A DNA stretch of 64,000 nt from Candidatus Kapaibacteriales bacterium. GTDB lineage: Bacteria > Bacteroidota > Ignavibacteria > Kapaibacteriales > UBA2268. The notes under the pieces were generated by a model. It searched no databases. It worked only from the letters and a program-made list of their open reading frames with translations, and had not been told where the DNA came from. The stretch spans positions 638,531 to 702,530 of the forward strand of contig CBFIFP010000001.1 of the NCBI GenBank assembly GCA_965661945.1, written 5' to 3'. Positions 5,711-63,973 of this stretch are shown here, one piece after another. Position 1 is the stretch's first letter. Every line of letters starts with the position of its first letter. The translations under genes and the position numbers were made by a program.

Positions 5711-5745
5711 AATATACTAATAACTTTTTAAAGGCGATTTTGTTA

Positions 5746-5753
5746 CAAAATTA
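5746..5753 (-). promoter_or_regulatory. TAnnTTTG (-7-like) promoter motif upstream of ECF sigma 1
   Basis: The minus strand reads TAATTTTG, 36 nt upstream of the ATG at 5710. It matches the Bacteroidota sigma-A -7 consensus, but chance matches are common in AT-rich DNA. Confidence 0.25.
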
Positions 5754-5795
5754 AGAATTATTTTTTCAAAAATAAGGAAATTGCTATTTATTTTT

Positions 5796-5803
5796 TAAAT
5801 TTG
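5796..5803 (+). promoter_or_regulatory. TAnnTTTG (-7-like) promoter motif upstream of the glycosyltransferase operon
   Basis: TAAATTTG lies 12 nt upstream of the TTG start at 5815. Confidence 0.25.
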
Positions 5804-5814
5804 TTTTTTTAAGG

Positions 5815-7578: not shown

Positions 7579-7604
7579 AAAAAAGGGGCTAGATGCCCCT
7601 TTTA
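7577..7604. terminator. Bidirectional rho-independent terminator
   Basis: AAAAAAAAGGGGC-TAGAT-GCCCCTTTT hairpin between convergent genes, with an A-run before and a T-run after. Confidence 0.6.
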
Positions 7605-7631
7605 AGTCTAATTTAAGTGATTTTTGGATTC

Positions 7632-9086
7632 TTACTCTTCACCAACTAATTTTTTATATTTGATAAATATATCGTTTGCAATTTTTCTACCTAATATTAA
7701 GCCCTCAGAGTTGTCAATTTCTATATGATATCCTCCAAGTACTCTTGACCTTCCTGCCATTTCAGCTGCTTTAGTGAATGTTGGAAAGTGCAATGTAACT
7801 GTATCACCTAAATTATCTGGTTCAGTCATTGCTCCTGGAACTAGATCAATACTTGTTCCAAACATATCACTTTTTTTATAAAGTTTAAGTATTTCAGCGC
7901 AACCACCGCTTATTGTGCTGTGACCTGAAACGTAAGCTGGAAATGGAGGGCATAAGAAGTATTCTGGAGAATATGGTCTCCATTCTTCACCTTTTATTTC
8001 GCCCCAACCTTTACCTTCACCTTTCCATCCTTTAATTGTTTGTCCTTTAAAGTATTCATGAACTAATGCGAAAGGTCTTGCATAATCATAGAACATTTTG
8101 GTGTCCCAACAAGCAATAAAGCCATCCATTGCTGTAGCCGTTACTAGGAAATACATTTTAACATCTTCATCTAAATTGTGCGAATCTCTTCGAGATACAT
8201 CTTGTGCAAATATTAACCAGTGTCCTGCTTGTTGGACTGATCTTGGACCATCTCGCATGATTTCTACAAGAGCTTTTTCTTCGGGTGTCATGTTTGCTTG
8301 TAATTCTACTACTTCTGCAACTTGTTCTTTTAGTAAATCACTTCCGTAAAGCGGAGGTGGTGGAGAACGAAATTGAGAAGCACTATCAATCATTAAAGTT
8401 TGAACTAACTGCCAATAAGGAGTTAAACATCCTGGTGCAAAAATTTTATCTCCAAAGACAAAGTTTTTTGGTTGCCATCTGTTGATATCATTTAAAAAGT
8501 CAGGTGGGTTGACTGGTTGATAACCAGTGTAATCATTGTATAATATTCCATCGTTGCTTAAAGAACCATCTTGATTAGCACCATCATTTAATCTTGTTTT
8601 GATGATTCTTTCTGCCGCAAGATTTCCAATACCTACCGCTGTTGTTGGGTCAGTAGAATTATCATAAGGGTCTAAACCAAGCTCTTTCATTTTTTCTACA
8701 AATAGAGTTGTATCTGAGAAATAATACTCTCTTAGAGTTCTGTAAGCAGCATAGCTGATAGCAATCTCTTTATTTTTTTGTGTTCTTTCTTGTTCTGAGA
8801 TTCTTTCTATATCTTTTATGAATACTGGATTTGCTTTATCGTCGAACCTTGACCAAGAATCATAAACAGATGCAAAAACTAATCCTAACATCCTAGAGGT
8901 AACAGTAGGTCTTGGTTTAAATTTTTCAGTATCATTTGCTGTTGCTTCTAAAGCAACCTTTCCCCAAAAATAGGCTACGTTATTGGGGGCACTACTTCCT
9001 AAGATTGTTTCTTCATCATTTTTCTTTTGCTCAGAGCATGAAAATAGAATTAAGATTACTGTAAAAAGAAGAATAATTTTTTTCAT
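7632..9086 (-). CDS. PAP2-superfamily lipoprotein, vanadium-dependent haloperoxidase / acid phosphatase-like
   Basis: PAP2 motifs are present: KMFYDYARP (Kx6RP), YVSGHS (PSGH-like) and SRVLGGYHIEID (SRx5Hx3D). I prefer the internal start MKKIILLFTVILILFSCSEQ (lipobox) at 9086 over the ORF-track start at 9185. Confidence 0.7.
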   Translation of the reverse strand: MKKIILLFTVILILFSCSEQKKNDEETILGSSAPNNVAYFWGKVALEATANDTEKFKPRPTVTSRMLGLVFASVYDSWSRFDDKANPVFIKDIERISEQERTQKNKEIAISYAAYRTLREYYFSDTTLFVEKMKELGLDPYDNSTDPTTAVGIGNLAAERIIKTRLNDGANQDGSLSNDGILYNDYTGYQPVNPPDFLNDINRWQPKNFVFGDKIFAPGCLTPYWQLVQTLMIDSASQFRSPPPPLYGSDLLKEQVAEVVELQANMTPEEKALVEIMRDGPRSVQQAGHWLIFAQDVSRRDSHNLDEDVKMYFLVTATAMDGFIACWDTKMFYDYARPFALVHEYFKGQTIKGWKGEGKGWGEIKGEEWRPYSPEYFLCPPFPAYVSGHSTISGGCAEILKLYKKSDMFGTSIDLVPGAMTEPDNLGDTVTLHFPTFTKAAEMAGRSRVLGGYHIEIDNSEGLILGRKIANDIFIKYKKLVGEE

Positions 9087-15732: not shown

Positions 15733-18700
15733 ATGAAAGTTATTTCAAAAATAACATTTCTGATAGGGATTTTCTGTTTATTCTCAAATAATTTGCTTGC
15801 AGATGCGCAGGTTCAAATATTTCACAATTCTTCAGATCCCGCAGCTAATATAGTAGATATATATGTAAATGGTATGAAACCTGATGCATTAGATGATTTT
15901 AATTACAGAGAAGCAACTCCTTATATACCAATTCCTGCAGGAGTTGATGTTGTTGTTACAGTTGCAAATAGTAACTCTCAAAATGTGATGGATGGAGTAA
16001 TTCAGACTTTTGAACTGGGTCAATTGGTTGACAATCAAGAATACGTAGTTATTGCAAATGGTGTATTAAATACTGATGTATTCAATAGTCCTGATATGGA
16101 TAGAAATATAGCTTTTGACTTGAAGGTAATACCTGGTAAAAGAATGTCAGGAAGTATTGGACAGGTAGCTGTAAGTATTTATCATGGAGTTACTGATGCT
16201 CCTGCAGTTGATGTTTATATTGCATCTTCTGGTCAAGATTTTCCAGATGAACCACAAGTTCCAAATCTAGATTACGCTCAATCAACAGAGTTTTTAATGT
16301 TATCTGCAGGCTTCTACAACATAAGAATAACTGCTGCTGGTAATAAGGATGTTATAGTTGGAGATTATTCAGCTCCTTTAACAACTGCCGCTGGAATAGG
16401 TGCAGTTGTTGTTGCAAGTGGATTTTTATCTCCAGAAGATGAGAATAATGGAGCAGTAAACGCTAATATCTATAGCTTTGGATTGCTAGCTGTTGCTTCA
16501 GCAGGTATTGTTATTCCTTTACCGCAAGTTGATTTTGCAGCAGTTCAAATTATACACAATGCAGCAGACCCTGCAGCAGAAGTAGTTGATATATACGTTG
16601 GTGGAATGAAAGTTGGAGATGATATTCGTTTTAGAAATGCAACTACTTATGTACCAGTTGTAGCTGGTGAACCGGTTAATGTTTCAATAAATTTACCTAC
16701 TTCAAACAACTCTCAAGATGGTGCTTTAAAAACTTTCACATTACCTGCACTTGAAAAGAATTCTCAAACAACAATAATTGCAAATGGTGTTGCTGGAGAG
16801 GACTTTATTAATGGCGGCGAAGATCGTGATATTTCTTTAAATTTATTTGCTTCTCCAAGTAGAGCAGAAGCTAATAACTCAAATCAAATTGATGTAAATA
16901 TTTTTCATGGTTCAACTGACGCACCTGCTGTAGATATTTATGCTGATATTAATGGTGATCCTCTTGTGCCTAATTTTGATTACGGCGCATTTACCGGATA
17001 TGTGTCATTAGAACCTGCAGATTACGAATTAACTGTAACAGTTGCTGGTAATAAAGATGCTGTTGCTGGAAGATTTATTGCTCCTTTGAGTGATTTAGCT
17101 GGACAAACTGCTGTTGTTTTTGCTTCTGGATTTTTAGATACTGAAGCTCAACCAGGCGATGTATCTGAAGAGTTTTCTTTTGGCTTATATGCTGCATTCC
17201 CGAATGGTTTGGTAATTCCTTTAGAAAAAATTGAAGAAGAACCTGAACCAATGGCTTATGTACAAATTATTCATAATGCAGCTGACCCTGCAGCAAAATT
17301 TGTAGATATTTATATTGATGGAAATAAAGTTTTGACTAACTTTGAATTTAGAAGTGCAACTCAGTATTTAAGTTTAGCTCCAGGTATTGAATATGAGGTT
17401 TCTGTTAATTTACCAAATAGCACAAGCGTAGATGATGGTCAAATTGGCGTGTTTAATTTACCTGCTTTAATGGCTGATACTGATTATGTAGTTGTGGCTA
17501 ATGGAGTAGCTGGTGATGGCTTTACTAATGGCGCTGATGGAAGAGATATTACATTTCAATTATTCCCAACTGGTGGTAGAAAAACTGGTTCAAATGCTGA
17601 GCAAGTTGATATAAATGTATTCCATGGTTCAACTGACGCACCTGCTGTAGATATTTATGCAGATTTAGAAGCTGATCCTTTAGTTCCAAATTTAGATTAT
17701 GGTAGCTTTACTAATTATGTTAGTTTACCAGCTGATAATTATATTTTATCTATTACTGTTGCTGGAAACAAAGAAGCTCTAGCTGGTCAATTTATAGCTC
17801 CACTTTCAGCTTTACAGGGTGAAGCGTTAGTAGTTTTTGCTTCAGGATTTTTATCTACTGAATCTCAACCTGATAATGTTACAGAAGAATATGCTTTTGG
17901 TATTTATGCAGCTTTGGCAGATGGAACAGTTATTCAATTACCTGTATATGAAGAAACAGATGCTAACACAGCATTTATTCAAATTGTACATAATTCAGCT
18001 GACCCAGCAGCAGCAGAAGTTGACATATATGTTAATGGTGAATTAGCTCTTGATAATTTCTCATTTAGATCCGCAACTCGTTATTTACCATTTAATGTAA
18101 ACGAAAGTTATGAAATTTCTGTAAACTTACCAACTAGTACAAGCGTAGAAGAAGGTCAAGTTAAAACTTTTGTTCTACCTACTCTTGAAGCGGGTGCTGA
18201 ATATATAGCTATTGCTAATGGTGTTGTTGGCGAAGGATTTAACTCAGGTGCTGAAGGAAGAGATATTGCATTTAATTTACACATTATTGAAGGAATGGCT
18301 GCTTCATCAGCGGAAAATTTATTAATGTTTAATGCTTTTCATGGTGTTACTGACGCACCTGCAGTTGATGTATTTGACGATTTATTTAATCCAGTAATTC
18401 TTAACTTGGATTACGCTAATGATAACGGATGGACAGCAATCGAAGTTACTCAAGATTGGGATTTAACTGTTACAGCTCATAACTCACCAGAAACTGTTGT
18501 TGGCACCTATTATGCGCCTTTAACAAGTTTTGTAGGCTCAAGTATTTTAGTTATGGCATCTGGATTTTTATCTACTGCAGATGAACCAAATGCAACAAAT
18601 GATCAAGATTTTGGATTATTTGTTGTTACATCAAGAGGTGATGTAATTCCTCTAGATCTTGTTGGCTCTGTAAATAAGCAACTTTCTAATCTTGCTTCTT

Positions 18701-18921
18701 TGTATCCTAACCCTGCAAGAGAGCAAATACAAATTGATATTAATCAAGCAATTCCAAGTTCGTTCAAAGTTTATAATTCAAAATCTGAATTAATGTTATC
18801 TCAAAATGTTACATCTACAAATGTAACACTTGATTTAACAAGTTTTAATTCTGGAACATACTTTATTTTGGTTGAAACAAACAAAGGTCAAGTATTCAAG
18901 AAATTTGTTGTAAATAAATAA
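15733..18921 (+). CDS. Secreted repeat protein: eight DUF4397-like modules in four double units plus a T9SS C-terminal sorting domain
   Basis: Signal peptide. Recurring VQI(I/F)HN(A/S)ADPAA..VDIY(V/I).G and (F/Y)HG(S/V)TDAPAVD(I/V)Y motifs, which match my memory of the DUF4397 signature. C-terminal LYPNPAREQIQIDIN...TLDLTSFNSGTYFILVETNKGQVFKKFVVNK is a por-secretion tail. An AAGAGG SD precedes the ATG. Confidence 0.75.
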   Translation: MKVISKITFLIGIFCLFSNNLLADAQVQIFHNSSDPAANIVDIYVNGMKPDALDDFNYREATPYIPIPAGVDVVVTVANSNSQNVMDGVIQTFELGQLVDNQEYVVIANGVLNTDVFNSPDMDRNIAFDLKVIPGKRMSGSIGQVAVSIYHGVTDAPAVDVYIASSGQDFPDEPQVPNLDYAQSTEFLMLSAGFYNIRITAAGNKDVIVGDYSAPLTTAAGIGAVVVASGFLSPEDENNGAVNANIYSFGLLAVASAGIVIPLPQVDFAAVQIIHNAADPAAEVVDIYVGGMKVGDDIRFRNATTYVPVVAGEPVNVSINLPTSNNSQDGALKTFTLPALEKNSQTTIIANGVAGEDFINGGEDRDISLNLFASPSRAEANNSNQIDVNIFHGSTDAPAVDIYADINGDPLVPNFDYGAFTGYVSLEPADYELTVTVAGNKDAVAGRFIAPLSDLAGQTAVVFASGFLDTEAQPGDVSEEFSFGLYAAFPNGLVIPLEKIEEEPEPMAYVQIIHNAADPAAKFVDIYIDGNKVLTNFEFRSATQYLSLAPGIEYEVSVNLPNSTSVDDGQIGVFNLPALMADTDYVVVANGVAGDGFTNGADGRDITFQLFPTGGRKTGSNAEQVDINVFHGSTDAPAVDIYADLEADPLVPNLDYGSFTNYVSLPADNYILSITVAGNKEALAGQFIAPLSALQGEALVVFASGFLSTESQPDNVTEEYAFGIYAALADGTVIQLPVYEETDANTAFIQIVHNSADPAAAEVDIYVNGELALDNFSFRSATRYLPFNVNESYEISVNLPTSTSVEEGQVKTFVLPTLEAGAEYIAIANGVVGEGFNSGAEGRDIAFNLHIIEGMAASSAENLLMFNAFHGVTDAPAVDVFDDLFNPVILNLDYANDNGWTAIEVTQDWDLTVTAHNSPETVVGTYYAPLTSFVGSSILVMASGFLSTADEPNATNDQDFGLFVVTSRGDVIPLDLVGSVNKQLSNLASLYPNPAREQIQIDINQAIPSSFKVYNSKSELMLSQNVTSTNVTLDLTSFNSGTYFILVETNKGQVFKKFVVNK
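15805..18660 (+). repeat. Four in-frame tandem repeats of ~717-732 nt inside the DUF4397 gene
   Basis: Unit starts are at about 15805, 16537, 17254 and 17971 (each VQI.HN..DPAA). Units 2 and 3 share an identical 38-nt run (16906-16943 = 17623-17660). Confidence 0.8.
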
Positions 18922-40553: not shown

Positions 40554-40670
40554 TTATGAAACATGACTAATATTGTGTGCAAGAATTTGGTTTAAAGCTA
40601 TAGTTTTAGATTTACCCAGATGGTCTTTGATTTCGTAGCGTTTTTCTTCGAAGTGTCTGTGCGTTTCGAT
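40554..40670 (-). pseudogene. Rhs core-junction remnant C (no start codon)
   Basis: Begins directly after the PIN gene's TAA, in the same frame. It reads IETHRHFEEKRYEIKDHLG and then the unrelated KSKTIALNQILAHNISHVS-stop. By my count, 48 of 57 nt are identical to 43121-43177. Confidence 0.6.
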
Positions 40671-41117
40671 TTAATTTCTGGCGATATACAATTCGAGCAT
40701 TTCTTTTGTTTCGATGATTTGGCTAAAACCTTTTTCTATTAAACCAGTTATTAATTTTTTATCTCCAGTCCAAAGTTTTGCATTGAGGTGGTTCGATAAT
40801 GCAACAAAAAATAAATCGTCTTCATCTATATCTTGACATAAATTATATGCAATATCATATTGAAATTCAGGAATCATTTCTTCATCAAAAGTTGATACTT
40901 TATCAAAGAACATATCTAACAACTTATCAAATTGATTGTCAGTAAACCCTGTTATATTAAGTATTTTATTTTTATGTAATTCAAGTTCTGTAAGGGTAAA
41001 TTTAGGAGTGTAAAACAAAAATCTATTTTTAGAATTTAAAATAATTTGTGAAATATTGCTTTTTTTATTTAATAATGCACTAAATAATATATTTGTATCA
41101 ATAATAATATCAAGCAT
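40671..41117 (-). CDS. PIN-domain protein (VapC-like toxin family)
   Basis: N-terminal IIIDTNILFSALL (first acidic residue). DIDEDDLFFVALSNHLNAKLWTGDKKL matches the distal PIN acidic motifs. Confidence 0.7.
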   Translation of the reverse strand: MLDIIIDTNILFSALLNKKSNISQIILNSKNRFLFYTPKFTLTELELHKNKILNITGFTDNQFDKLLDMFFDKVSTFDEEMIPEFQYDIAYNLCQDIDEDDLFFVALSNHLNAKLWTGDKKLITGLIEKGFSQIIETKEMLELYIARN

Positions 41118-41316
41118 TTACCTCTCGTTTTGCTTTAAATCTCTCCCATCTACCTTTTTTAACTTCACCAATAAGTTTATCAATATCTTCATTTCTTGCT
41201 TGTGATTTAGAAGTTATTTCTAAAAATTTTAAATAGTTTAAAATTTCTGAATAATCTTCATAATCATCTATTGGTAATTTTATCACAATTTCATTATTTA
41301 TAACATTTACATTCAT
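41110..41316 (-). CDS. Small protein upstream of the PIN gene, candidate antitoxin
   Basis: 68 aa, overlapping the PIN ORF by 8 nt, which is a type II TA-like layout. No DNA-binding motif firmly recognised. Confidence 0.4.
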   Translation of the reverse strand: MNVNVINNEIVIKLPIDDYEDYSEILNYLKFLEITSKSQARNEDIDKLIGEVKKGRWERFKAKREVNA

Positions 41317-41351
41317 ATACGTTCCTTATTTAATAATTAAGACGATTAAAT

Positions 41352-41570
41352 TCATAATTTATTTAACCCATTATATCCAAAGTTATAATCATTTCCAGAC
41401 CAAGAGCCAGCTTCTATCTCCATTCCATAAGGATGATAATTACTCATACTCTTTAAATCCGCTAAAAACTTCCAAGACGAAGCAACATCGTTATAATTGC
41501 TTGCATTCTTTATATCACTCGTAACTGCACGGACATTCCCCAGGTGGTCTTTAATTTCGTAGCGTTTTTC
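41352..41570 (-). pseudogene. Rhs core-junction remnant B (no start codon, truncated)
   Basis: Begins directly after the TGA of ORF 41571..42149, in the same frame. It reads EKRYEIKDHLGNVRAVTSDIKNASNYNDVASSWKFLADLKSMSNYHPYGMEIEAGSWSGNDYNFGYNG and then LNKL-stop. By my count, 61 of 68 aa are identical to the main copy. Confidence 0.7.
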
Positions 41571-42149
41571 TCAGTATATGGGAATAGCTTCTTTTCCTCT
41601 TATTACATATATATCTTTGTCTAATTTTTGAAATTTCAAATTATTCTTAATAAAAATTCTATAACCAATTGGGAATACATTTGAATAGTCAAATTTAATA
41701 TCTTCTATATCGACATAAGTTTTTAAAATTATTTTATATTCTGAACTAAACTTTGTTCTATATGGAAAGATTGAGATTTGAAGAAATTCATCTGTTTTTA
41801 CTATATCCCATATACAATAATTAATTGATAATTCTTTTAATTGGTTATAATCCTCAATTGCTATATAACTTTCTTTTTTAAGACCAAATGTTGTATAGCT
41901 ATTCATACAGGCAGGTTCACCATTATTTTTATATAATTCAGACCTATTTCTAAATGAGTAATACTGGAACCCATTATTATAAAAAATTGGATTATTTTCA
42001 ACTTCATCTACAATCCCTTTTTCTATCAATGTAAACTTTTGTTTATAAAATAAATATGTCATTTCAATAATAGAATTTTTAAAAAATATTAAGATTATAA
42101 ATATTATTAAAATTATTATTTTAAAGATTTTATTTTTAATTATTTTCAT
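41571..42149 (-). CDS. Candidate immunity protein (N-terminal TM anchor) for the Rhs C-terminal toxin
   Basis: ATGA overlap with the toxin ORF. TM helix IFKIIILIIFIILIFF. No family recognised, so the assignment is positional. Confidence 0.45.
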   Translation of the reverse strand: MKIIKNKIFKIIILIIFIILIFFKNSIIEMTYLFYKQKFTLIEKGIVDEVENNPIFYNNGFQYYSFRNRSELYKNNGEPACMNSYTTFGLKKESYIAIEDYNQLKELSINYCIWDIVKTDEFLQISIFPYRTKFSSEYKIILKTYVDIEDIKFDYSNVFPIGYRIFIKNNLKFQKLDKDIYVIRGKEAIPIY

Positions 42150-43438
42150 TTATTTACTCTCTTAATTTTAATTGAATTTTCATATTCCCAACCATTTATA
42201 TATGCTTTAATATCATTAATATCATCATGAATATCGTCATAATCTTGGAAATACCAATCTAATAAATGGTTAATATCAGCCCCTAATTTCATAACATTTT
42301 TAGGAACATCTAATCTTCCCATAGTTCTTCCCCACAAATGGTTTCCATACTCCAATTCATTGTATGCTATTTTATTTCTTGGATTCAAATAAAATGAAAT
42401 GGTTTTTTCTTGTTTTAAACCATAATTTTCTAAATTCATTCCATAATCAAATTTCCTTTTATTTTTATCTTCTCCCCTTTCATTTAAACTATTATTTAGA
42501 ATTGATAAATATTTATCGAAAAAAGAATAATTTTTTATATTTTTTGTGTTATTTTCAATTATTTTATCTTCCTGCTTTGTATCGTTGACTTGAATAATTT
42601 TTTTATCTTTATAAAATTCAGAAGTTGTTAATCTTTTAAATTTTGGGACATCATCTTCTGGGTTATTTATAGTAAAATATTGAGTGTTTTTACCATTAGT
42701 TACTTGAATTGACCACTCTTTTTTACCATCATCTATGGATTTTACAAATTTCCCATCTTCTTGAAAAACAAATGCACTATCTCCTCTTCTATCAGTAAAC
42801 CTTATCGGATTATTCCCCATCGTAGCATAGGTTGACATACTTGGGAATTTATATTCTAAAGGGTCAGGACTCCACCATCTGCCATCTTCTGATGACAAAT
42901 TCCTAAAGTGCGTATGGCTTATGTCTTTCCCAATCCCTTCCTTCAACATCCCATTATAACCGAAGTTATAATCATTTCCACTCCATGAGCCCGCATCTAT
43001 TAACGAACCATAAGGATGATAATTGTTTAAACTCTTTAAGTCTGCTAAAAATCTCCAAGATGAAGCAACCAAATTATAATTGCTTGCATTCTTAATATCA
43101 CTCGTAACAGCCCTAACATTCCCCAGATGGTCTTTAATCTCGTAGCGTTTTTCGCCTAAGTGCCTGTGGGTTTCTATTCCTGTTATGCTTGCACTTACTG
43201 CATTAGTAGTAAACGTATTACTAATCATTTCAGTGTTGTAAGCCACTTCCAAACTTGGCGGGTCATCTTCAAAGTTATCGTTGTAAGAGTCGTTATCCCG
43301 AATTTTGTAGCGTGGATATACAGTAGCCACTCTTCCATCCGATGCAGAACCATAGACATACCATTCTACGTTGTTGGTGGTTTCATCGCAAACATAAGTT
43401 GGGTCTGTATGATTTATAAATTTATTTTTGTAGAGCAA
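42146..43438 (-). CDS. Rhs repeat-associated core end plus unassigned C-terminal toxin domain (N-terminally truncated; possibly an orphan cassette or pseudogene)
   Basis: HLGEKRYEIKDHLGNVRAV, YHPYG, FGYNG, DGRWWSPDPL and MGNNPIRFTDRRGD together form the Rhs core terminus. It is followed by ~210 aa of unknown type. Called from TTG. The frame is open only to the TGA at 43487-43489 and has no ATG. Confidence 0.7.
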   Translation of the reverse strand: MLYKNKFINHTDPTYVCDETTNNVEWYVYGSASDGRVATVYPRYKIRDNDSYNDNFEDDPPSLEVAYNTEMISNTFTTNAVSASITGIETHRHLGEKRYEIKDHLGNVRAVTSDIKNASNYNLVASSWRFLADLKSLNNYHPYGSLIDAGSWSGNDYNFGYNGMLKEGIGKDISHTHFRNLSSEDGRWWSPDPLEYKFPSMSTYATMGNNPIRFTDRRGDSAFVFQEDGKFVKSIDDGKKEWSIQVTNGKNTQYFTINNPEDDVPKFKRLTTSEFYKDKKIIQVNDTKQEDKIIENNTKNIKNYSFFDKYLSILNNSLNERGEDKNKRKFDYGMNLENYGLKQEKTISFYLNPRNKIAYNELEYGNHLWGRTMGRLDVPKNVMKLGADINHLLDWYFQDYDDIHDDINDIKAYINGWEYENSIKIKRVNK

Positions 43439-43690
43439 TTTACCACCTGCTTCATAAACGAAAATATCATCAAAATATAAGTTTTTTCATATTCTGATTG
43501 TTTATAATACTCTATAATTTTGATATTTGACGATTTTATCATAAAATTATTTATTCCAGCCTTATTTTTAAACAAAATAATTAAAAATTCGTTTTTTTGG
43601 TGCAATCTTGTTAATTTTACTTTTTATTTTTTGCAAAAAAAGTAAATTACATTATTTGTAATTATTTTAATTTTAAAATAGGTTTTATTT

Positions 43691-47731: not shown

Positions 47732-48337
47732 ATGGCTGCCAATTCTTACGAAGACGTCCTTCGGGACGCAACCTCACAGAAATCTAAAAAGAACATTATT
47801 TTTCAATTTTCTAAAACTTATCCAGCTTGGCTAATTTTAATAATAGCTATTGGCTTAAGTATTGGTTTAATGTTCTTTGTTGAAAGTTCAATTAAAGGTG
47901 ACAATGAACTAGCATTTGAAAAAGCAACAAATTCTGTTATTACAAGAATTAAAGATAAATATACATTAAATGACCAAATACTAAATTCGATAAATGCGAT
48001 ATTTAGTTCTTATGTGGTTAGGGATGTATTTGAGTTAAACGCTGCAACTCCTGCAAATACCTATCCATCTATAAGAAGTATTTTAAGAATCCAAAAAGTT
48101 CCCAATGATAGATTAGAAGATTTCATTTATAATACTCGCTCTCAGGGTTATTATGATATGCAAATTAATCCAGATAATGAAAATGAAACACATTATTTGA
48201 CTGAGTATGTAGTTCCGTTTGAGAGAAATCCTCATTTATCAGGGTATGATTTTTCATCAGATCCAATGGCGACTAAATATATTGAGCAGGCAGGTAAAAA
48301 CAATTTAAAAGTTATTACCCCAGTTTATAATACATGA
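47732..48337 (+). CDS. Sensor kinase N-terminal fragment (TM plus first part of a CHASE-like domain), ends at an in-frame TGA
   Basis: TM helix AWLILIIAIGLSIGLMFFV. SGYDFSSDPMATKYIEQAGKNNLKVITPVY resembles the CHASE core. Same frame as 48386..49924, with no other stop between them. Confidence 0.6.
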   Translation: MAANSYEDVLRDATSQKSKKNIIFQFSKTYPAWLILIIAIGLSIGLMFFVESSIKGDNELAFEKATNSVITRIKDKYTLNDQILNSINAIFSSYVVRDVFELNAATPANTYPSIRSILRIQKVPNDRLEDFIYNTRSQGYYDMQINPDNENETHYLTEYVVPFERNPHLSGYDFSSDPMATKYIEQAGKNNLKVITPVYNT

Positions 48338-48385: not shown

Positions 48386-49924
48386 ATGCCAATTGAAACT
48401 GAAGAAGATAGAATGAATAACTTTATGGGTGCATTAATTATTGAAATATCACCCTCGATATTTTATGAAAATGCTTTAGGTAAAGGTGTTTCTTCTGATT
48501 CTAATATAGTTTTTGATATTTATGAGGAAATAGATGGTGCAAAAAATACCATATTTAAATCATTTAATATCGATATATTAAAACAAAATTATAATCCAAT
48601 TGTAACAGAGATAAAAGATTTTAAAATCAACCAAAAATCAATTTTTATTGATTTTAAGACTGTTCCTGATTTTGGAGGAGAGTTTCAGAAATACCTACCA
48701 TTGATATCATTAATTGCTGGTATTTTAGTTTCATTTATTTTATTCGGATTTATCTTATCGGTTATTACAAGTCGACAACGAGCATTAGAATTAGCCGACC
48801 AAATGACAAAATCCCAAAGACGAATTGTAGAGTCTTCACAAGATATAATTGCAGTGCTTTATTTTAATGGTATTTGGAAAACAATGAACAGAGCAGCCGA
48901 GGATATTTTTAATGTGAGTGCTGAAGAGATGGTTGGGATGTCGGTTGATGAATTATTTATAGAAAAGCAAGACTCTCATAAATTTTATTCTATAATTGAA
49001 TCTTCGATGGATGATTATACCGAAAGATTAGATTTCCAAATGAAAGCTAGAGGAAACAAAGTTAAATGGGTGAACTGGTCGTTAACTGTATCTCAAACGG
49101 ATAAATTAATTTATGCAATTGGACGCGATATAACTTTAGAAAAAGAAGCTCAAACTCAACAAGATATTAGAAATAAACAAGTTCAACTTGCAGAGCAGTT
49201 TTCAAGAGAAGCCTCTGAGTCTAAATCTTTCTTTATGACTCAGCTTTCTCATCAATTAAGAAACTCTCTAACTGGGATTTTGGGTTATCTTGATTTGGTT
49301 CAAAATGGCTTTTATGATAATGAAGAAGAGATGAAAGAGTATGTTAAGTTAGCAGAGATGTCATCAGAGGAAATATTCCAGTTTGTATCTGATATTGTGG
49401 ACATTACAATAGCTACTGACGGAGAAAATACATTAGATATGTCAACTGTTTCTTTTAAAGATGTGTTTTATAAGGTTAATTATAAAAGCTCTTTAACCGG
49501 TGAGCTTGAAGATATTAAAATAGAGTTAGTAGAAGAAAATGGTTCTGCACATTTTGTTGGAGATAAAAATGTAATGAATGAAACACTTTTGTTTATGTAT
49601 AAGGCATTAGCTGAAGGCAATAATTCAACAACTACAATACAGGTGAATGCATCTGATAATCCATACGAAGGTGCAATGGAAATACAAATGCTTGGCTCTG
49701 AAAATTCTAAACTTGAAAAAATGATTCATATTTATAAAGCAGAAAAAGATAATATTATTGATGCTTTAGAGAATGATGAAGACGATATATTACTAAAACT
49801 TTCGATTATAGAATCAAATATAAGAAGGTTAAACGGTTCATTTAGTGTTGAAACTTTCGGAGGAGAGGAAGGAAATATATTTATGGTTACTCTTCCTATG
49901 AATCAGAATTTAAAGAAAAAATAA
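48386..49924 (+). CDS. Sensor kinase C-terminal part: rest of CHASE, TM, PAS, HisKA, degenerate HATPase-like domain
   Basis: Second TM LISLIAGILVSFILFGFILSVI, PAS region (IVESSQDIIAVLYFNGIWKTMNRAAEDIF...) and H-box FFMTQLSHQLRNSLTGILGY. In the C-terminal domain I cannot find N, G1 or G2 boxes. Confidence 0.65.
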   Translation: MPIETEEDRMNNFMGALIIEISPSIFYENALGKGVSSDSNIVFDIYEEIDGAKNTIFKSFNIDILKQNYNPIVTEIKDFKINQKSIFIDFKTVPDFGGEFQKYLPLISLIAGILVSFILFGFILSVITSRQRALELADQMTKSQRRIVESSQDIIAVLYFNGIWKTMNRAAEDIFNVSAEEMVGMSVDELFIEKQDSHKFYSIIESSMDDYTERLDFQMKARGNKVKWVNWSLTVSQTDKLIYAIGRDITLEKEAQTQQDIRNKQVQLAEQFSREASESKSFFMTQLSHQLRNSLTGILGYLDLVQNGFYDNEEEMKEYVKLAEMSSEEIFQFVSDIVDITIATDGENTLDMSTVSFKDVFYKVNYKSSLTGELEDIKIELVEENGSAHFVGDKNVMNETLLFMYKALAEGNNSTTTIQVNASDNPYEGAMEIQMLGSENSKLEKMIHIYKAEKDNIIDALENDEDDILLKLSIIESNIRRLNGSFSVETFGGEEGNIFMVTLPMNQNLKKK

Positions 49925-57743: not shown

Positions 57744-58151
57744 TTAAATTTTATTGTTGTGGATTATTTTTTTGTTCATTCCACAGCAATCTGCTAGTTC
57801 TTTTTTGAGAATTAATTTTTCTTCGTCGGTCATTTTTTTTAAATTTTCTACTATTTTTGCAGACTTTGCAGGATTTTGTAGTTTTAACATTAATGAATTT
57901 GTAATTCCAGTTTTAGAAATTCCAAACCTAATTCCAAATACAAATACATATAGGAACGCAATAATACCAGCTGATTCTAAATAATTTAGGCAGGGTATTT
58001 CATATCTGTCTAATATTGTTAGATTACAAATATTTGCAAATACAATAGAAGAAAAAAGCAGTAGCCCACCTGTAAAAACAATAAAGAATACAGAGCGGGC
58101 AATACCACTATTAAATATTTCAAAAAGTTTTGATTTAAACATAAAAATCAA
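57744..58151 (-). CDS. Small membrane protein co-transcribed with ECF sigma 3 (possible anti-sigma)
   Basis: Overlaps the sigma gene by 4 nt. Two TM helices. No anti-sigma motif recognised. Confidence 0.35.
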   Translation of the reverse strand: MIFMFKSKLFEIFNSGIARSVFFIVFTGGLLLFSSIVFANICNLTILDRYEIPCLNYLESAGIIAFLYVFVFGIRFGISKTGITNSLMLKLQNPAKSAKIVENLKKMTDEEKLILKKELADCCGMNKKIIHNNKI

Positions 58152-58705
58152 CTTACATTAAGAGAATCATAAAGTTCTTTTAAATGACTTCTCAGGTGTA
58201 AAACTGCATATCTTTTTCTTGCTAACAATGTATTTATATTTATTCCTGTCATCTTGGACATCTCACGGAAGGAAATACCTTCAAACTCATTACGAATAAA
58301 TACATCTCTTTGCTCATTAGGTAATGTAGATAAGCCCTCTTGAACAGCATCCCATATAGTTTTACGAATAAGACTATTTTCTGGGCTGGTGCTTATATCG
58401 CCTAAAAAATTCTCAAAGCTATCCATACCATCTTCAATCTGACCAGGAGTCTGCAACTCTGAGAAAGTCTCAGCTCTTTTTTTACGATATGTATCAATAA
58501 TTCTATTACGGACAGCAGTGAATACCCAAGAAGCGATATTCTCTATTGGTTTTTGTACATTTCTAGATGCCGCAAGGACATTGGTAAATACATCTTGTAG
58601 AATATCTTCTGCTTCTTCTTGACTTCTTACGCGCTGCCTAATGAATCCTAAGAACTTTTTTCTATCATTTTTAAAAAGTTCTTCAATCTGGAATGCTAAG
58701 TCCAT
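58148..58705 (-). CDS. ECF-type RNA polymerase sigma-70 family factor (module 3)
   Basis: DILQDVFTNVL, WVFTAVRNRIIDTYRKK, and region 4 QRDVFIRNEFEGISFREMSKMTGININTLLARKRYAV. I prefer the ATG at 58705, preceded by GCAGGAGGTACTAAT (strong SD), over the GTG at 58759. Confidence 0.8.
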   Translation of the reverse strand: MDLAFQIEELFKNDRKKFLGFIRQRVRSQEEAEDILQDVFTNVLAASRNVQKPIENIASWVFTAVRNRIIDTYRKKRAETFSELQTPGQIEDGMDSFENFLGDISTSPENSLIRKTIWDAVQEGLSTLPNEQRDVFIRNEFEGISFREMSKMTGININTLLARKRYAVLHLRSHLKELYDSLNVS

Positions 58706-59099
58706 ATTAGTACCTCCTGCATTACTTTTATTATTATTTTTCGTGTTCGTGTTTTTCACTTATATAAAAGACACATCAATTGATAAAAAGTTACAAAATA
58801 TTTTAAAAAAAATGTTTTTCTAATAATTTTCTAATTTATATTACGAAAATATGAAAGAAAAGTTAATATAACAACTATTTTTTTTAACACTGACATAATG
58901 TCATAAAAAAATTTTTGTAATCGCTTTTGTAAGAAATTACAATATTATGCCAATAATGTTTCAAAAGTTGTTTCGGAAAAATGTGATTTTTCTTTAGAAT
59001 ATATAACTTATTTAACTTAGAAATTTTATTAATGGTTGTGATTTCGGTATTGAAGTATTTTTTTACTTAAAATTCTTGTAAAGAATATAAATATTATTT

Positions 59100-59340
59100 A
59101 CAAAGTAATATTAAGAGATTTGCCGAGATGGTCTCTCACTTCATATTCCTTTTGTGATATTCTTCTAGTTGTTGTAAACGTTTCACTTGGTGGATTTATT
59201 GCAACTCAGTATGAAATATTTTCTGGTTTTCAAGTTACGAGATGTCTCTGCACCGTCAAGCCGTAGAGTTAGTTTTCTGCCCCGGAATGGACTTTTGTTG
59301 ATGGTAATTCAACTGATTGGTTGGTGGCAAACTATTGTTA
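59100..59340 (-). other. Locally G+C-richer non-coding patch, possibly decayed Rhs junction remnant(s)
   Basis: The minus-strand frame reads ...SETFTTTRRISQKEYEVRDHLGKSLNITL-stop. Compare TFTTN...EKRYEIKDHLG in the 43-kb copy and DHLGKS in remnant C. A second degenerate copy of the GAGAC(C)ATCTCG core lies at 59238-59253. Confidence 0.25.
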
Positions 59341-59349
59341 TATTAAATG

Positions 59350-60072
59350 CTAATAACAATCTGTATAACCACCATCAACATTAATGTGCTGACCTGTTAT
59401 ATAATTAGATGAAGTAGCGAAAAAATAGACTGCATCAAATATGTCTTTTACATTTCCGTATCTATTAATTGGTATTTTAGTTAAAGCAATTGGCTTTATA
59501 TCAGTTTCATTATCTTCTTCTAAAATGATAAAACCCGGGTTGACTGCATTAACTGTAATATTTGGAGCGAGTTCTCTTGCAAGTGCTTTATTCAACTGGA
59601 TAGAAGATGCTTTTGAAATGTTATAAGCAATTCTATTATCCCAAATCTGCAACCCACCAATTGAGATAATATTTATAATTTTTGAGTTTGGCTTTGCATA
59701 TTTTGCAAATACTTTTGATGTATGAATTAATGAGAAAGTATTTAAAGAAAAGACATTGTTAAGTAATTTAGTATCAATATTTTCCAGTTTTGTTTTTGGA
59801 GGGAATACTCCTGCGTTATTAATCAAAACATCTGCAACTCCAAATTCCTCAAAGCATTGTTTAAAAGTTTCTTCCACTTCAATTTCATTTGTCAAATCTG
59901 CTTTAAAAATATAGCAGTTATAACCAGATTCCTTAATTTCATTATACAAATTATACGCAGATTCTTTGGAAATATTATAATGTATTATAACTTCCCAAGA
60001 ATTTTTTTTAAACAATTTTACAAGTTCTTTGCCAATTCTTCGTCCTGAACCTGTGATTAATACTTTTTTCAT
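59350..60072 (-). CDS. Short-chain dehydrogenase/reductase (SDR) family oxidoreductase
   Basis: Cofactor-binding site ITGSGRRIG, NNAG, and the catalytic YNISK (YxxxK). Confidence 0.85.
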   Translation of the reverse strand: MKKVLITGSGRRIGKELVKLFKKNSWEVIIHYNISKESAYNLYNEIKESGYNCYIFKADLTNEIEVEETFKQCFEEFGVADVLINNAGVFPPKTKLENIDTKLLNNVFSLNTFSLIHTSKVFAKYAKPNSKIINIISIGGLQIWDNRIAYNISKASSIQLNKALARELAPNITVNAVNPGFIILEEDNETDIKPIALTKIPINRYGNVKDIFDAVYFFATSSNYITGQHINVDGGYTDCY

Positions 60073-60087
60073 AAAAAAATAATTAAA

Positions 60088-62046
60088 ATGATAATAATTT
60101 TACTTTTAATATTTACAAATTTAGCAAGTTCTGATGAATATTTCAGAGTTTTTTATAAAGAAAAAGATACTTTAAACTTTGTGCAGGGCAATTCTTATTA
60201 TGAAGAAACTTTGAAATTATTTAATGAGAGAGCAATTAAACGCAGAAATCTTCATCAAAAAAATATTACAATTGAAGATGCAATTATCAATCCCGAATAT
60301 ATTTCTATACTACAATCTTATGACTTAGACATAGTTAGCTCTTCTCGTTGGTTTAATTATACTTTAATTAAAGCAAATGAAGATGTAATTTCTGAATTAG
60401 AAAAGAATGATTTTATAAAAAATATAACAAGAACTACAACTAAATTTAAAAGCCAAAGTTTATTTGAAATAAATTATACTGAAGAAATTTTAGATAAAAA
60501 TAGATATGGTCGTTCTTTACCTCATTCTAATATGCTTAACGTGGATTTTTTTCACTCAATGGGATTTAATGGTGATTCAGTAGTTGTTGGATATTTAGAT
60601 ACTGGTTATAAATTGAATCCGGAGATATTTGATTCAACTCAGTTGCATGCTCAGTATGATTTTGTATATAATGATAATGAGACAGCTAACCAAGAAATAG
60701 ACCCAAAATTTCAAGATTTTCATGGTACAGCAGTTTTATCAACTGTAAGCGCTTACTATCAAGACTCTTTAATTGGTATTGCCAGCGAGTCAAAATATAT
60801 TTTGTCAAAAACTGAAGATATTCGCTCTGAAACAAATATCGAAGAAGATTTTTATCTTTTTGGAGTTGAATGGATGGAAAGCCAAGGAGCAGAAATACTA
60901 AATTCTTCTTTGGGTTATGTTAGTTTTGATTCTTTACAGTTTTCATATAATTATAATAATTTAGATGGAAATACTACTTTAGTAAGTCAGTCAGTTAATA
61001 AAGCAGTTGATAAAGGTATTTTGTTTTTTACATCAATGGGTAACAATGGAGGTTCTGAAAAAACTTTGACTTCACCTTCTGATGCTGATTCGGTTATAGC
61101 AATAGGTGCTCTGGCTTCTGATGGAATTACTCTTGCTGGTTTTAGTAGTAAAGGTCCAAATGCTAAAGGAGATATTCGCCCACATTTAATGGCTCACGGG
61201 CTTAACGTTACTATCGCTACTACTGACACTACTACTTTTTTTGGAAGGAACTCTGGAACAAGTTTTTCATCTCCAATTATGGCAGGTTGTGGAGCTATAG
61301 TTAAGGCAATATATGATATACCGAGCTATCAGATAAAGAACGCTATGATTACAACCGCTAATAATTATGAAAATCCATCAAATACTTTCGGTTATGGTAA
61401 AATAAATATGCAAACTGTTGTAGATACTTTAAGTAAAACTTATGGACCTGCAATTTCCCCATATAATGTTTTTCAAAATGGCGATTATATGAGGGTCGTA
61501 TTTTATGTTTATAGTCCTTATGATGATTTTAAAGTTTTTTTGAAATATAAAAGTAGCGAAAAAGGGTTAGAAACAGAAGTTGAAATGGATTATGGAATTG
61601 AAAATTATCAATTTTATGCTGACATACCTAAGAGTTCTTTTACTGATGATGAAGTGTTTATGAATCTTGAAGTGAGATATAACTTAATAAACAAGTTTTA
61701 CAGTGAAGATTTTGTTAAATTTTCTTTTGGAAATGAGATAATACGTAAGGGTGTGGATAAGTTCTCGATGCCAACGTTAGTTAATAATTTTCAAAAAGAT
61801 ATAAATATTTATATAGCAGATAACGAACTAATTATCGAAAATAATTTAAAAAAAGTTGAAGATTTTGAAATAAATATTTTGGATATTACAGGAAAGTCCT
61901 TATTTTTGTATTCTATTCTACTACGGAATGGTAAAAATGTTCTAAATATACAAAGAAATTTAAACACGGGTTTATATTTAATTACTCTTAGGAGTAAATC
62001 AAATTTTATAACTCGTAAAATAATTTTAACAAATTCGGGATCGTAG
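60088..62046 (+). CDS. S8 (subtilisin-like) serine peptidase with a T9SS-type C-terminal domain
   Basis: Catalytic triad contexts VVGYLDTGY (Asp), HGTAVLS (His) and GTSFSSPIMAG (Ser). C-terminal INILDITGKSLF...NTGLYLITLRSKSNFITRKIIL. Confidence 0.85.
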   Translation: MIIILLLIFTNLASSDEYFRVFYKEKDTLNFVQGNSYYEETLKLFNERAIKRRNLHQKNITIEDAIINPEYISILQSYDLDIVSSSRWFNYTLIKANEDVISELEKNDFIKNITRTTTKFKSQSLFEINYTEEILDKNRYGRSLPHSNMLNVDFFHSMGFNGDSVVVGYLDTGYKLNPEIFDSTQLHAQYDFVYNDNETANQEIDPKFQDFHGTAVLSTVSAYYQDSLIGIASESKYILSKTEDIRSETNIEEDFYLFGVEWMESQGAEILNSSLGYVSFDSLQFSYNYNNLDGNTTLVSQSVNKAVDKGILFFTSMGNNGGSEKTLTSPSDADSVIAIGALASDGITLAGFSSKGPNAKGDIRPHLMAHGLNVTIATTDTTTFFGRNSGTSFSSPIMAGCGAIVKAIYDIPSYQIKNAMITTANNYENPSNTFGYGKINMQTVVDTLSKTYGPAISPYNVFQNGDYMRVVFYVYSPYDDFKVFLKYKSSEKGLETEVEMDYGIENYQFYADIPKSSFTDDEVFMNLEVRYNLINKFYSEDFVKFSFGNEIIRKGVDKFSMPTLVNNFQKDINIYIADNELIIENNLKKVEDFEINILDITGKSLFLYSILLRNGKNVLNIQRNLNTGLYLITLRSKSNFITRKIILTNSGS

Positions 62047-62125: not shown

Positions 62126-63973
62126 ATGAAATTACAATCAAAAGAACATTTTTTGGAATCAGATCTTCTTAGAAGCCCACTTCTTACAGCTTTCAAATTC
62201 TCCATATTTTTCGTTTCTATTTATTCAATATTAATAATAACTCAATTTTCTAATACTATTTCTTTTTATTTATCTATTACTACAATAGTTTTAATTCCTA
62301 TTTTATATTTTCTGAAAAAAAATTTTTTACTTTATTTAGCTATACTTATATTTACAGTTAATTCTACTTATTATAGATTCAGTGATTCACAAATAAATAC
62401 TAACAATCAATTTAAAGATATTGAGGTTTTGTTAGATGGAGATGTAAAATCAATAATATCTTCACATTATAATAGAAGTTCAATAATCGCTAATGCTACT
62501 GTTGAATCAAAACATTTTAATTCATTTAATACTAATATATTATTAACAATTTTTAGATATGATGATTTAAAAATAATTGAAGGTGAAAAATTTCAATGTA
62601 AAGCAAAATTAAACACTATTCCTCAAAAAATTTTTCCAAATGAATTCCCAACAAAGCAACATTTAAAATCGCTAAAGGTAAATTTTACAGCTACTTCATC
62701 TTCAAAAGAATTTATAATTTATGATGATTCTAATATTTTTTATAAAGTATTGAACCATTTAAGAAATGATTTTAAAAATAAAATATTTTTACTATTTCCA
62801 GAAGATGTTGCTGATGTAATTTTTGCAATAACAATCTGGGATAAATCTTTTATTTCCAAAGAGGAAAAACAGATTTACTCACTTACAGGTACATCTCACA
62901 TTATGGCTGTTTCAGGACTTCATGTTGGAATTATAGCTGTGTTTCTTTACTTTTTTACATTTTTTATTAAAAATGAAAAATTAAAATATTTAATTAACTC
63001 ATTACTATTAATTGGTTATGTGGTTTTAACTGGTTTGCAAGCATCATCTATTAGAGCTGCCTCTATTGCGATAATGATATATTTAGCAATAGTTTTAAAG
63101 AAACATTACGATATTAAAAATTTACTTGGATTTGCAATAGTCATTTTTATTTTGATTCAACCGGAGATTATTCTTTCGGTTTCCTTTCAATTTTCAGTTG
63201 CAGCTTTTTTGGGAATAGTGCTATATACCAAACGGATAAGCGACTACATAAATTATAAAGTCAATAATAAAAGTGATTTACTAAGTAATTTAATAATTCT
63301 AATTTCAACTTCAATATCGGCGATGATATTTACAAGTCCTTTAGTTGCTTATTATTTTAATAACTTTACATTACTTGGTATAATTAGTAATATGTATGCA
63401 ATACCAATTATCTCTTTATCGTTAATTTTATCATTTATAGTTTTGTTTATCACTTTTTTATCATTTGAGTTATCTTTTCTTTTTGCAAATTCTGTAACGT
63501 TTTTGATAAGATTGCTTGAGGGCTTAAATAGTTATGTTGTAAAAATTGAATACTTGTTTTATTCTGGTTACAATTCTCTAATCTATGCTGTGATTTTTTC
63601 GTTAATAATTCTTGTTTTACTAAATTATAAATCATTTATAAAATCTGCATCTTACATTGCATTGGGCTTGATAATAGTTTTTTCATACTCTTATTATGCC
63701 AAAGAAAATACGTATATAAAAGACAATTATTATTATAAAGTAAAATTAATTGAAAAAGAAGAAGTTGTTGATTTATATATTTTTGATAAGTCCAAAAATA
63801 CATCTATTTTTTTAGATTATAGTTTATTAGAATACATAGAAGAAACAAATAAAAATATTAGACTAACAATTAATGGCGATAATGGAAGATTTTTTTATGA
63901 TAATATTAAAGATAATGTTACGTTAGATAGTTTGATTTTTGATGAAAAAAATATTATAAATTATTTTAAATAA
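62126..63973 (+). CDS. comEC: ComEC/Rec2-family DNA internalization channel protein
   Basis: Polytopic membrane protein with the competence-domain motif LTGTSHIMAVSGLHVGIIA. Starts 15 nt after tRNA-Asp. Confidence 0.85.
   Translation: MKLQSKEHFLESDLLRSPLLTAFKFSIFFVSIYSILIITQFSNTISFYLSITTIVLIPILYFLKKNFLLYLAILIFTVNSTYYRFSDSQINTNNQFKDIEVLLDGDVKSIISSHYNRSSIIANATVESKHFNSFNTNILLTIFRYDDLKIIEGEKFQCKAKLNTIPQKIFPNEFPTKQHLKSLKVNFTATSSSKEFIIYDDSNIFYKVLNHLRNDFKNKIFLLFPEDVADVIFAITIWDKSFISKEEKQIYSLTGTSHIMAVSGLHVGIIAVFLYFFTFFIKNEKLKYLINSLLLIGYVVLTGLQASSIRAASIAIMIYLAIVLKKHYDIKNLLGFAIVIFILIQPEIILSVSFQFSVAAFLGIVLYTKRISDYINYKVNNKSDLLSNLIILISTSISAMIFTSPLVAYYFNNFTLLGIISNMYAIPIISLSLILSFIVLFITFLSFELSFLFANSVTFLIRLLEGLNSYVVKIEYLFYSGYNSLIYAVIFSLIILVLLNYKSFIKSASYIALGLIIVFSYSYYAKENTYIKDNYYYKVKLIEKEEVVDLYIFDKSKNTSIFLDYSLLEYIEETNKNIRLTINGDNGRFFYDNIKDNVTLDSLIFDEKNIINYFK

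Follow-up and report, generated by a model that had tools for sequence, protein, structure and literature searches.

A truncated Rhs frame and core stubs beside glmS: probably a detached orphan cassette site in a Kapabacteria-like bacterium

What sustains the 3' end of an Rhs gene from which the delivery part has apparently been lost? The question is raised by a minus-strand locus in the window analysed here (the whole stretch of 64,000 nucleotides from a Candidatus Kapaibacteriales bacterium), in which an open frame encodes the end of an Rhs core and a toxin-like C-terminal domain, followed by a candidate immunity gene and by stubs of further Rhs cores, next to the divergent glmS gene. Orphan pieces of this kind are usually seen as spare parts for an adjacent full-length gene, but here that gene is gone from the locus while the locus is still changing. 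In our judgement, the locus is probably a detached orphan Rhs cassette and immunity site, representing what is left of the 3' end of an rhs array in a Kapabacteria-like bacterium. It offers a natural test of what sustains lone orphans, for which there are three candidates: immunity, an internal toxin-antitoxin effect, and exchange by recombination with a distant rhs gene.

The truncated frame and its alleles among strains

The frame covers 43486..42146 on the minus strand, comprises 446 open codons 3' of a TGA at 43487-43489 and begins KNLYFDDIFVYEAGGKLLYK; a second stop lies five codons upstream of this TGA. Its parts and its upstream edge are listed here, L005 being a contig from another strain of the species.

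42779..43486, minus strand: end of the truncated Rhs shell and core, 236 codons, with the TGA at 43487-43489 as the upstream limit
42146..42778, minus strand: putative C-terminal toxin domain, 210 aa and a stop, beginning after ..NNPIRFTDRRGD
43476..43509, minus strand: 34-nt stretch at the 5' edge, of which 31/34 nt match L005 1308-1341 (inside a P0003-type toxin end)
43490..43690, no strand: spacer that separates the truncated Rhs frame from the divergent glmS, which starts at 43691, 201 nt from the TGA; no Rhs homology

The observation made in the initial annotation was confirmed as a whole, including the frame that is open back to the TGA, and the coordinates and counts that were checked are correct, except for the statement that the frame contains no ATG. 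There are seven in-frame ATGs, the first of which is codon 87, and only codons 1-86 are devoid of them. The single start-type codon within these first 86 codons is a TTG at codon 17 (43436-43438), with AGGTGG located 4 nt upstream; the ORF 42146..43438 (minus strand) starts at this TTG, and gene callers picked the same codon in two assemblies (P0001, P0003). A use of TGA as a sense codon was considered and ruled out, given that the toxin and immunity ORFs end with TGA, that translation with table 11 leaves the housekeeping ORFs intact, and that a second stop is present five codons further upstream.

The proposed Rhs core terminus was recovered with the TIGR03696 model (Rhs_assc_core), which matched residues 156-235 of the frame (42782-43021) with 35.3 bits against a cutoff of 32.5. 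A Pfam scan of the 446-aa frame gave no family match, RHS_repeat included. The core terminates with ..NNPIRFTDRRGD and is followed by 210 residues. From ..YFYEAGGKLLYKNKF on, the fragment aligns inside the longer relatives P0004, P0005 and P0007 and inside the main gene of L002, a contig from a related organism, and the start of the frame corresponds to ..YFYEAGGKLL of relatives that have at least 520 further residues upstream. The position of the DPxGL-type cleavage site is conserved, with NNPIRFTDRRGD followed by S in the window and NPINFVDLFGLS, NPINFIDPLGDA and NPIQNTDKDGEA in the relatives, while the motif itself is degenerate. By homology, the 446-codon frame is the 3' end of an Rhs gene.

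The remainder of such a gene was not found at the locus. There is neither a YD-repeat shell nor a long ORF nearby, and the same holds for 10 other assemblies, as the initial annotation had proposed for the window; nor could an N-terminal export or delivery part and a proper start codon be identified at the locus. Residual shell homology is also absent from 43490-43690: the tblastn alignments end at 43486, and the similarity of this region to the main rhs gene of L002 is at the random level (61/131). The 34-nt stretch at the edge has one match in L005 at three mismatches or fewer, as compared to none in 200 shuffles, and the match to the P0003-type toxin end falls in a different reading frame. 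This stretch is probably the scar of the deletion that took away the shell.

The exact GlmS protein of the window is encoded on 16 other contigs, of which 10 were examined. The best named relatives of glmS belong to Kapabacteria/Kapaibacteriales. In the 10 conspecific assemblies, 1829-1833 of the 1833 nt of glmS are identical, as is the whole spacer (201/201); they also carry the TGA and the 34-nt scar, as does the start of L005. All 10 contigs stop 226-743 nt upstream of glmS, within the Rhs fragment, with the first 25-540 nt of the fragment joined to glmS. On the right flank, three contigs with near-identical copies of topA and of a 260-aa ORF end in one of the core stubs (stub C) or in the adjoining PIN gene described below. 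Furthermore, the three contigs L011, L024 and L022 from sample ERR15116713 tile the array of the window, L024 being an exact 2361-nt match to 40617-42977. Because the 10 assemblies share the join to glmS and the three contigs tile the array, the truncated start is real and common to the species. No full-length rhs gene is located beside glmS in any of the 11 assemblies, and glmS is situated 201 nt upstream of the truncated frame in all of them.

Downstream of this shared start the strains differ. Two haplotypes are seen in the first 115 nt of the fragment, and beyond approximately 43373 there are at least five core alleles with 75-85% identity. The alleles are all in frame and differ mostly at synonymous sites (dS 0.26-0.98, dN/dS 0.04-0.23), whereas the flanks of the divergent alleles differ by no more than 0.2%. 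An allele divergence of 15-25% beside flanks that are this similar means that the alleles have not arisen in place, but that tracts have recombined in from constrained rhs genes. We take the comparison to show that allele tracts were imported by homologous recombination from rhs genes under protein constraint.

The toxin ends differ likewise. L015, which comes from the glmS side, overlaps L005 by exactly 55 nt, 14 nt of which are locus-specific; in this allele the P0003 toxin end is followed by a 178-aa ORF and by a longer orphan. A second overlap, of 53 nt with haplotype-specific variants, joins L013 to L007 and leads into yet another toxin end (a 436-aa piece) with two small ORFs. In both the L005 and L007 arrays, the second orphan keeps more of the core than the first fragment. 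The frame is open for 446 codons in the window, for 510 codons in L005 (from the same TTG) and for 436 codons to the stop in L007, where the contig begins inside the frame. No Pfam matches were obtained for the toxin ends and small ORFs of L005 and L007. The window and the linked contigs together show at least three different sets of predicted toxin end and small ORF on one truncated start.

The initial annotation had interpreted the locus as displaced orphan cassettes left by serial recombinational replacement, and this is partly supported. An Rhs core match, a missing shell that is common to independent assemblies, and signs of recombination were all found, the last consisting of at least five mosaic alleles beside near-identical flanks and of different toxin ends on the same start in two strains. 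Recombination at the core is thus supported by the population data, but to call the locus a store implies a function that goes beyond the sequence.

The 1.09-Mb contig that contains the window was also searched for a full-length rhs gene, with the fragment and the L002 shell as protein queries. None of the matches came from it, an absence that is uninformative because products cut by contig ends are not indexed and no match was longer than 904 aa.

We also observed that 43443-43465 is a frequent break point of short-read contigs. Within the array of the window this stretch has no second copy, which hints at other copies or co-existing variants.

Toxin end, junction repeats and toxin-antitoxin pairs

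Downstream of the core, the initial annotation had described about 210 residues of unknown type and an overlapping 192-aa ORF, and both were recovered as described. The ORF is the following.

41571..42149, minus strand: candidate immunity gene, 192 aa, with the hydrophobic N-terminus MKIIKNKIFKIIILIIFIILIFF; its ATG overlaps the toxin stop (ATGA)

The toxin end has no direct match in Pfam, and no match to PF15607 even at E-values up to 10. A phmmer search of 1.84 billion representative proteins identified 17 relatives, three of which (P0029, P0034 and P0036) match the Pfam family Ntox44 (PF15607). An hhalign comparison of the toxin family of the window with an Ntox44-positive profile yielded a probability of 99.3% (E 8e-21). 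Two of the motifs given for Ntox44, GNxxxG and DxxxD (Zhang et al., 2012; PMC3482391), are present as GNHLWG and DDIND, while the third motif, DxK, could not be located. As judged from these profile and motif comparisons, the toxin end is a distant relative of Ntox44. The same type of toxin end also sits on full RHS proteins: P0033 is a protein of 1206 aa with a DUF6443 domain (Pfam match) and YD-type repeats that could be read from the protein, and P0030 has a weak match to RHS_repeat. A family search with the 192-aa ORF gave no match; the order of toxin and ORF is identical in the independently assembled L024.

The junction within the core is repeated, as illustrated by the motif EKRYEIKDHLG, which is encoded at three sites on the minus strand (43122-43153, 41539-41570 and 40615-40646). 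That it recurs twice downstream had already been noted, and the 32-nt pattern indeed has three minus-strand copies in the window as compared to none in 100 shuffles; a more diverged fourth stub can now be added. The repeat and the elements that carry it are listed below.

Core junction repeat sequence: GARAARMGNTAYGARATHAARGAYCAYYTNGG
43119..43178, minus strand: junction repeat copy A, IETHRHLGEKRYEIKDHLG
41352..41570, minus strand: core stub B, homologous to A over 41570-41367, ending with LNKL and a stop just after GYNG; no toxin end
40554..40671, minus strand: core stub C, with 60 nt of junction homology (40612-40671) directly after the PIN stop, ending past DHLG
approximately 59104-59181, minus strand: stub D, solitary and more diverged, QKEYEVRDHLGKS, seen in recurrent tblastn matches and in alignments

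Copies A and B share 204 nt with 84% identity and 61 of 68 residues, with dS 0.75 and dN/dS 0.12, and stub C matches 43121-43177 at 48/57 nt; the comparisons of the initial annotation were reproduced in both cases. Likewise, both remnants start right after the preceding stop codon, with TGA followed directly by GAAAAACGC and TAA by ATCGAAAC. Stub D ends at the breakpoint of C (GACCATCTNGGNAAATCT), and the 18-mer across this breakpoint, GACCATCTGGGTAAATCT, recurs in stub D with 2 mismatches (0 expected). The neighbours of stub D are a short-chain dehydrogenase-like ORF at 59350-60072 and a gene for an ECF-type sigma factor at 58148-58759, and the stub may be the mark of a second, fully eroded array site.

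Only part of the earlier description as an array of cassettes could be upheld. The locus does consist of orphan core and toxin-end material, but there is a single complete cassette: a small ORF directly downstream is found for copy A, whereas B is followed by a toxin-antitoxin pair and C is a bare 60-nt stub with nothing downstream. The pair is composed of two overlapping genes.

41110..41316, minus strand: candidate antitoxin, 68 aa, with an 8-nt overlap with the PIN gene
40671..41117, minus strand: PIN_2 toxin of a predicted type II toxin-antitoxin pair, 148 aa; PF10130, 2.8e-25

The PIN protein scored 28.8 bits against TIGR00305, below the cutoff of 29.15. A family search with the 68-aa ORF gave no match; an ORF that precedes a PIN_2 gene in L001, a contig from a sister species, shares 34% identity with it. 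On the basis of the PIN family match and the small overlapping ORF upstream, the ORFs between B and C are a predicted PIN toxin-antitoxin pair rather than an Rhs toxin and immunity cassette. The pair occupies the place of the variable part of cassette B, just past GYNG, where the cores of the relatives split into classes, and in other strains (L021, L023) the array likewise has the PIN gene at its right end.

Compared with these two strains, the window has 8 differences in about 60 nt of stub C (40629-40662) and 5 in about 105 nt at the beginning of the PIN gene (40713-40747), as opposed to only 3 in the adjacent 3.1-kb flank. At its right end, too, the array thus varies more than the sequence next to it.

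In a search of genome contigs, the junction pattern was recovered from a sister species only, and among metagenome contigs from three short relatives. In L002, the main rhs gene encodes at least 987 residues before it is cut by the contig end, with YD-type repeats and the same ..YKNKFINHTDPTYVC..GIETHRHLGEKRYEIKDHLGNVRAV.. stretch as in the fragment. It is followed by an ORF for a DUF4279 protein, the orphan P0004 (about 440 residues of core) with a small ORF, the shorter orphan P0006 with a small ORF, and finally a 93-nt stub. Every core piece in L002 starts 0-25 nt from the preceding stop codon, and the abutment of stubs and stop codons is thus a general trait of such arrays.

A different arrangement was observed in the sister species with a GlmS protein that is 92% identical to that of the window (L001, from the metagenome-assembled genome GCA_964465945.1). 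The L001 array (5683-8000) is made up of three Rhs-core stubs, each followed by a toxin-antitoxin pair, in the order stub, antitoxin and YafQ-like toxin, stub, antitoxin and PIN toxin, stub, antitoxin and YafQ-like toxin. There is no Rhs toxin end, and the first stub lies 14 nt past the stop of a prolyl oligopeptidase gene. The genome that contains L001 and L029 (CAYXMM010000001.1 and CAYXMM010000010.1) is titled "uncultured Hyphomicrobiales bacterium", a label that looks wrong given a G+C content of 23-36% and the 92% identity to the Kapabacteria-type GlmS of the window.

The neighbours of glmS differ between the sister species. A bestrophin-like gene is located upstream of glmS in a species with 96% identity in GlmS, and a tryptophan dioxygenase gene in the species with 92% identity, neither of which has an rhs gene there; synteny with the sister species starts only at approximately 43611. 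In the window, the Rhs array takes this place and is followed by topA. Thus, the array sits at a synteny breakpoint within the genus, although the comparison identifies the breakpoint only and not the ancestral state.

Competing explanations of the locus

Plain decay is an unlikely account, but it survives scrutiny better than the other alternatives. It would make the locus a dead rhs gene that is eroding by deletion, with nothing under selection and with the strain differences corresponding to stages of decay. Many features are what such erosion would leave behind, including a truncated start with a stop codon and no shell, the deletion scar at 43476-43509, a stub B that lacks the toxin end, a stub C of 60 nt, a further fossil stub at 59.1 kb, the L001 array of the sister species without any toxin end, and the position at a synteny breakpoint. 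Yet, in a genome with about 30% G+C, the frames have remained open over 446 codons in the window, 510 in L005 and 436 in L007, with different toxin ends and intact downstream ORFs, and the five alleles are all in frame with mostly synonymous differences. Furthermore, an allele divergence of 15-25% beside flanks with at most 0.2% is impossible by decay in place.

We also considered the possibility that the truncated gene is used internally, being translated in the cell from the TTG at 43438 or from an internal ATG, and that, together with the immunity protein, it influences the growth of the cell itself in the manner of a type II toxin-antitoxin pair, as reported for the orphan Rhs of Salmonella. 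We find this quite improbable. In Salmonella, the rhs toxin ends and immunity genes are reported to be transcribed from promoters inside the rhs ORF, in one condition at about 100 times the level of the delivery part (PMC7043789), and both the choice of the TTG at codon 17 by the gene callers (P0001, P0003), with AGGTGG 4 nt upstream, and the ATGA overlap of toxin and immunity gene would suit such a scenario. However, glmS, topA and proS in this genome have no such ribosome-binding sequence, which makes its use uncertain, and AGGTGG derives from conserved EAGG codons. The membrane anchor of the candidate immunity protein also fits poorly with a cytoplasmic antitoxin.

An assembly artefact, in which the shell would be present upstream and the assembler would have fused glmS to the middle of an rhs gene, is excluded for all practical purposes: Rhs cores are repeated and the short-read contigs of the species all break inside the array, but ten independent assemblies from different samples share the glmS join with the spacer and the fragment start, the TGA and scar recur in them and in L005, and the three contigs from ERR15116713 tile the array, L024 exactly.

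We favor the hypothesis of a detached orphan cassette and immunity site. The comparison of strains shows a shell that was lost, by deletion or rearrangement, before the sampled strains diverged, with about 236 core codons fused to a predicted toxin end as the remainder. The core (approximately 43486-42950) would then serve as a left homology arm, and stubs B and C or the flank as the right arm. Through these arms, homologous recombination with functional rhs genes, be they at another site of the genome or in other strains, would bring in new toxin-immunity cassettes. Where the direct junction repeats recombine with each other, cassettes would be deleted and stubs such as B, C and D left behind. 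Because there is neither a shell nor an N-terminal export part, the toxin would not be deliverable from this locus. The useful part may instead be the immunity gene, which could protect against a matching Ntox44-like Rhs toxin of neighbouring cells, and the toxin end might be kept in silence as a spare for a complete rhs gene. The PIN pair may resist the deletions that erode the rest, as its loss would be lethal, which would explain why the stubs abut the stops of ORFs and why L001 has been reduced to alternating stubs and toxin-antitoxin pairs.

Several considerations weigh against this hypothesis. The strains could differ because a single long ancestral array has undergone distinct internal deletions in each, and not because of new imports; both deletion and import are recombination at the core, but only import makes the locus a receiving site. 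The links between strain contigs are end overlaps of 53-55 nt and not spanning reads, and an rhs donor or recipient in this species is assumed, the full-length gene not having been seen. The toxin and immunity roles are proposed from position and remote homology, and the toxin end of the window may be inactive, given that a DQ pair conserved in eight relatives has its Q replaced by I. Nor was the scan for promoters and terminators above the level of shuffled sequences (34 promoter sites versus 25 +/- 6). Finally, the stabilizing role of the toxin-antitoxin pair is suggested by analogy. A search against Rfam identified two tRNAs in the whole window and no RNA in the Rhs region.

A bolder extension, which we consider doubtful, is that the Rhs-core pieces form an integrase-free cassette platform, in which coding repeats would serve as homology sites to gain, store and lose toxin-immunity and toxin-antitoxin pairs. 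Such a platform would be detached from delivery, present throughout the species, and have its deletions policed by the toxin-antitoxin pairs. If true, the alternating array in L001 and the PIN pair in a cassette slot of the window would be two states of one system and not accidents. 

Apart from this extension, two sister species show a regular pairing in which Rhs-core stubs and toxin-antitoxin modules occur together, and this suggests an influence of addiction modules on the way such arrays erode; we found no paper on toxin-antitoxin modules in the erosion of Rhs arrays.

Known systems and genomic setting

Orphan modules that lack initiation signals, have variable cores and differ between strains are well described (PMC3150448; PMC3482391). 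The modules are usually without initiation signals, retain a variable amount of upstream sequence and have been considered as a possible immunity repertoire or reservoir (PMC3150448), and cassettes move as pairs of toxin and immunity genes (PMC3482391). The window resembles the orphan rhs-CT/rhsI and cdiA-CT/cdiI modules of the Enterobacteria (Poole et al., 2011; PMC3150448) in that a core fragment with a variable toxin end and no proper initiation signal is followed by a small ORF, in that the core lengths vary and some modules lack toxin or immunity gene, and in that unrelated toxin ends occur in the same setting in different strains. Whereas the enterobacterial orphans are located downstream of a full-length gene (PMC3150448), there is no such gene at the locus in any of the 11 assemblies, the lineage is Kapabacteria-like, and a PIN pair occupies one slot. 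Three features are thus distinct here: exchange continues while no strain has a full-length gene at the locus, the lineage is a different one, and a toxin-antitoxin pair has taken a cassette slot.

An rhs piece without delivery part and with an immunity gene has also been described in Salmonella Typhimurium (Starsta et al., 2020; PMC7043789). There, the orphan Rhs behaves like a toxin-antitoxin module of type II, which illustrates one way in which such a piece could matter without being delivered. That orphan, unlike the locus in the window, adjoins the main rhs gene, and its internal promoters have been mapped by experiment. The arrays of type VI secretion system effector and immunity genes in Vibrio cholerae (PMC5361080) and the diversification of Rhs genes in bee-gut bacteria (PMC5727410) are similar in that successive replacements at a conserved 5' part are reported to leave older immunity genes and toxin remnants downstream; unlike the locus in the window, these arrays are reported to remain attached to delivery genes. 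Polyimmunity loci (Zhang et al., 2012; PMC3482391) contain immunity genes without a matching active toxin, for which a protective role against the toxins of others has been proposed. By the definition of that paper, however, they are never interrupted by toxin cassettes, whereas the window keeps a full toxin end along with core stubs, and because a toxin cassette is present we do not classify the locus as a polyimmunity locus.

Chromosomal integron arrays (Richard et al., 2024; PMC13108822) provide another parallel, with silent cassettes that are reported to lie between direct repeats that promote excision, and with interspersed toxin-antitoxin pairs that penalize cassette loss. Unlike these integrons, the locus has no integrase, attI or attC sites, its array repeats are coding sequence, and exchange would take place by homologous recombination at these protein-coding repeats; with no integrase, the array is not an integron. 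We found no paper that treats Kapabacteria together with Rhs, and the locus extends Rhs arrays to a little-studied lineage.

No recombinase was seen among the neighbours of the array (topA, the 260-aa ORF, glmS and proS), and there are no type VI secretion genes or Rhs delivery genes within the 64-kb window. A ComEC-type competence protein is encoded at 62126-63973, which suggests that uptake of DNA is possible. Two proteins encoded in the window (15733-18921 and 60088-62046) have a type IX secretion C-terminal sorting domain. A gene break at the strain level was observed in a CHASE-PAS-HisKA sensor kinase, which is split into 47732-48337 (201 aa) and 48386-49924 (512 aa), similarly in L011 and L015, and is a single ORF of 730 aa in six other conspecific assemblies. 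Finally, the minus-strand gene at 486-2330 encodes an unusual fusion, in which a fumarase/aspartase-type lyase (Lyase_1 and FumaraseC_C) is preceded by an N-terminal cyclic-nucleotide-binding domain.

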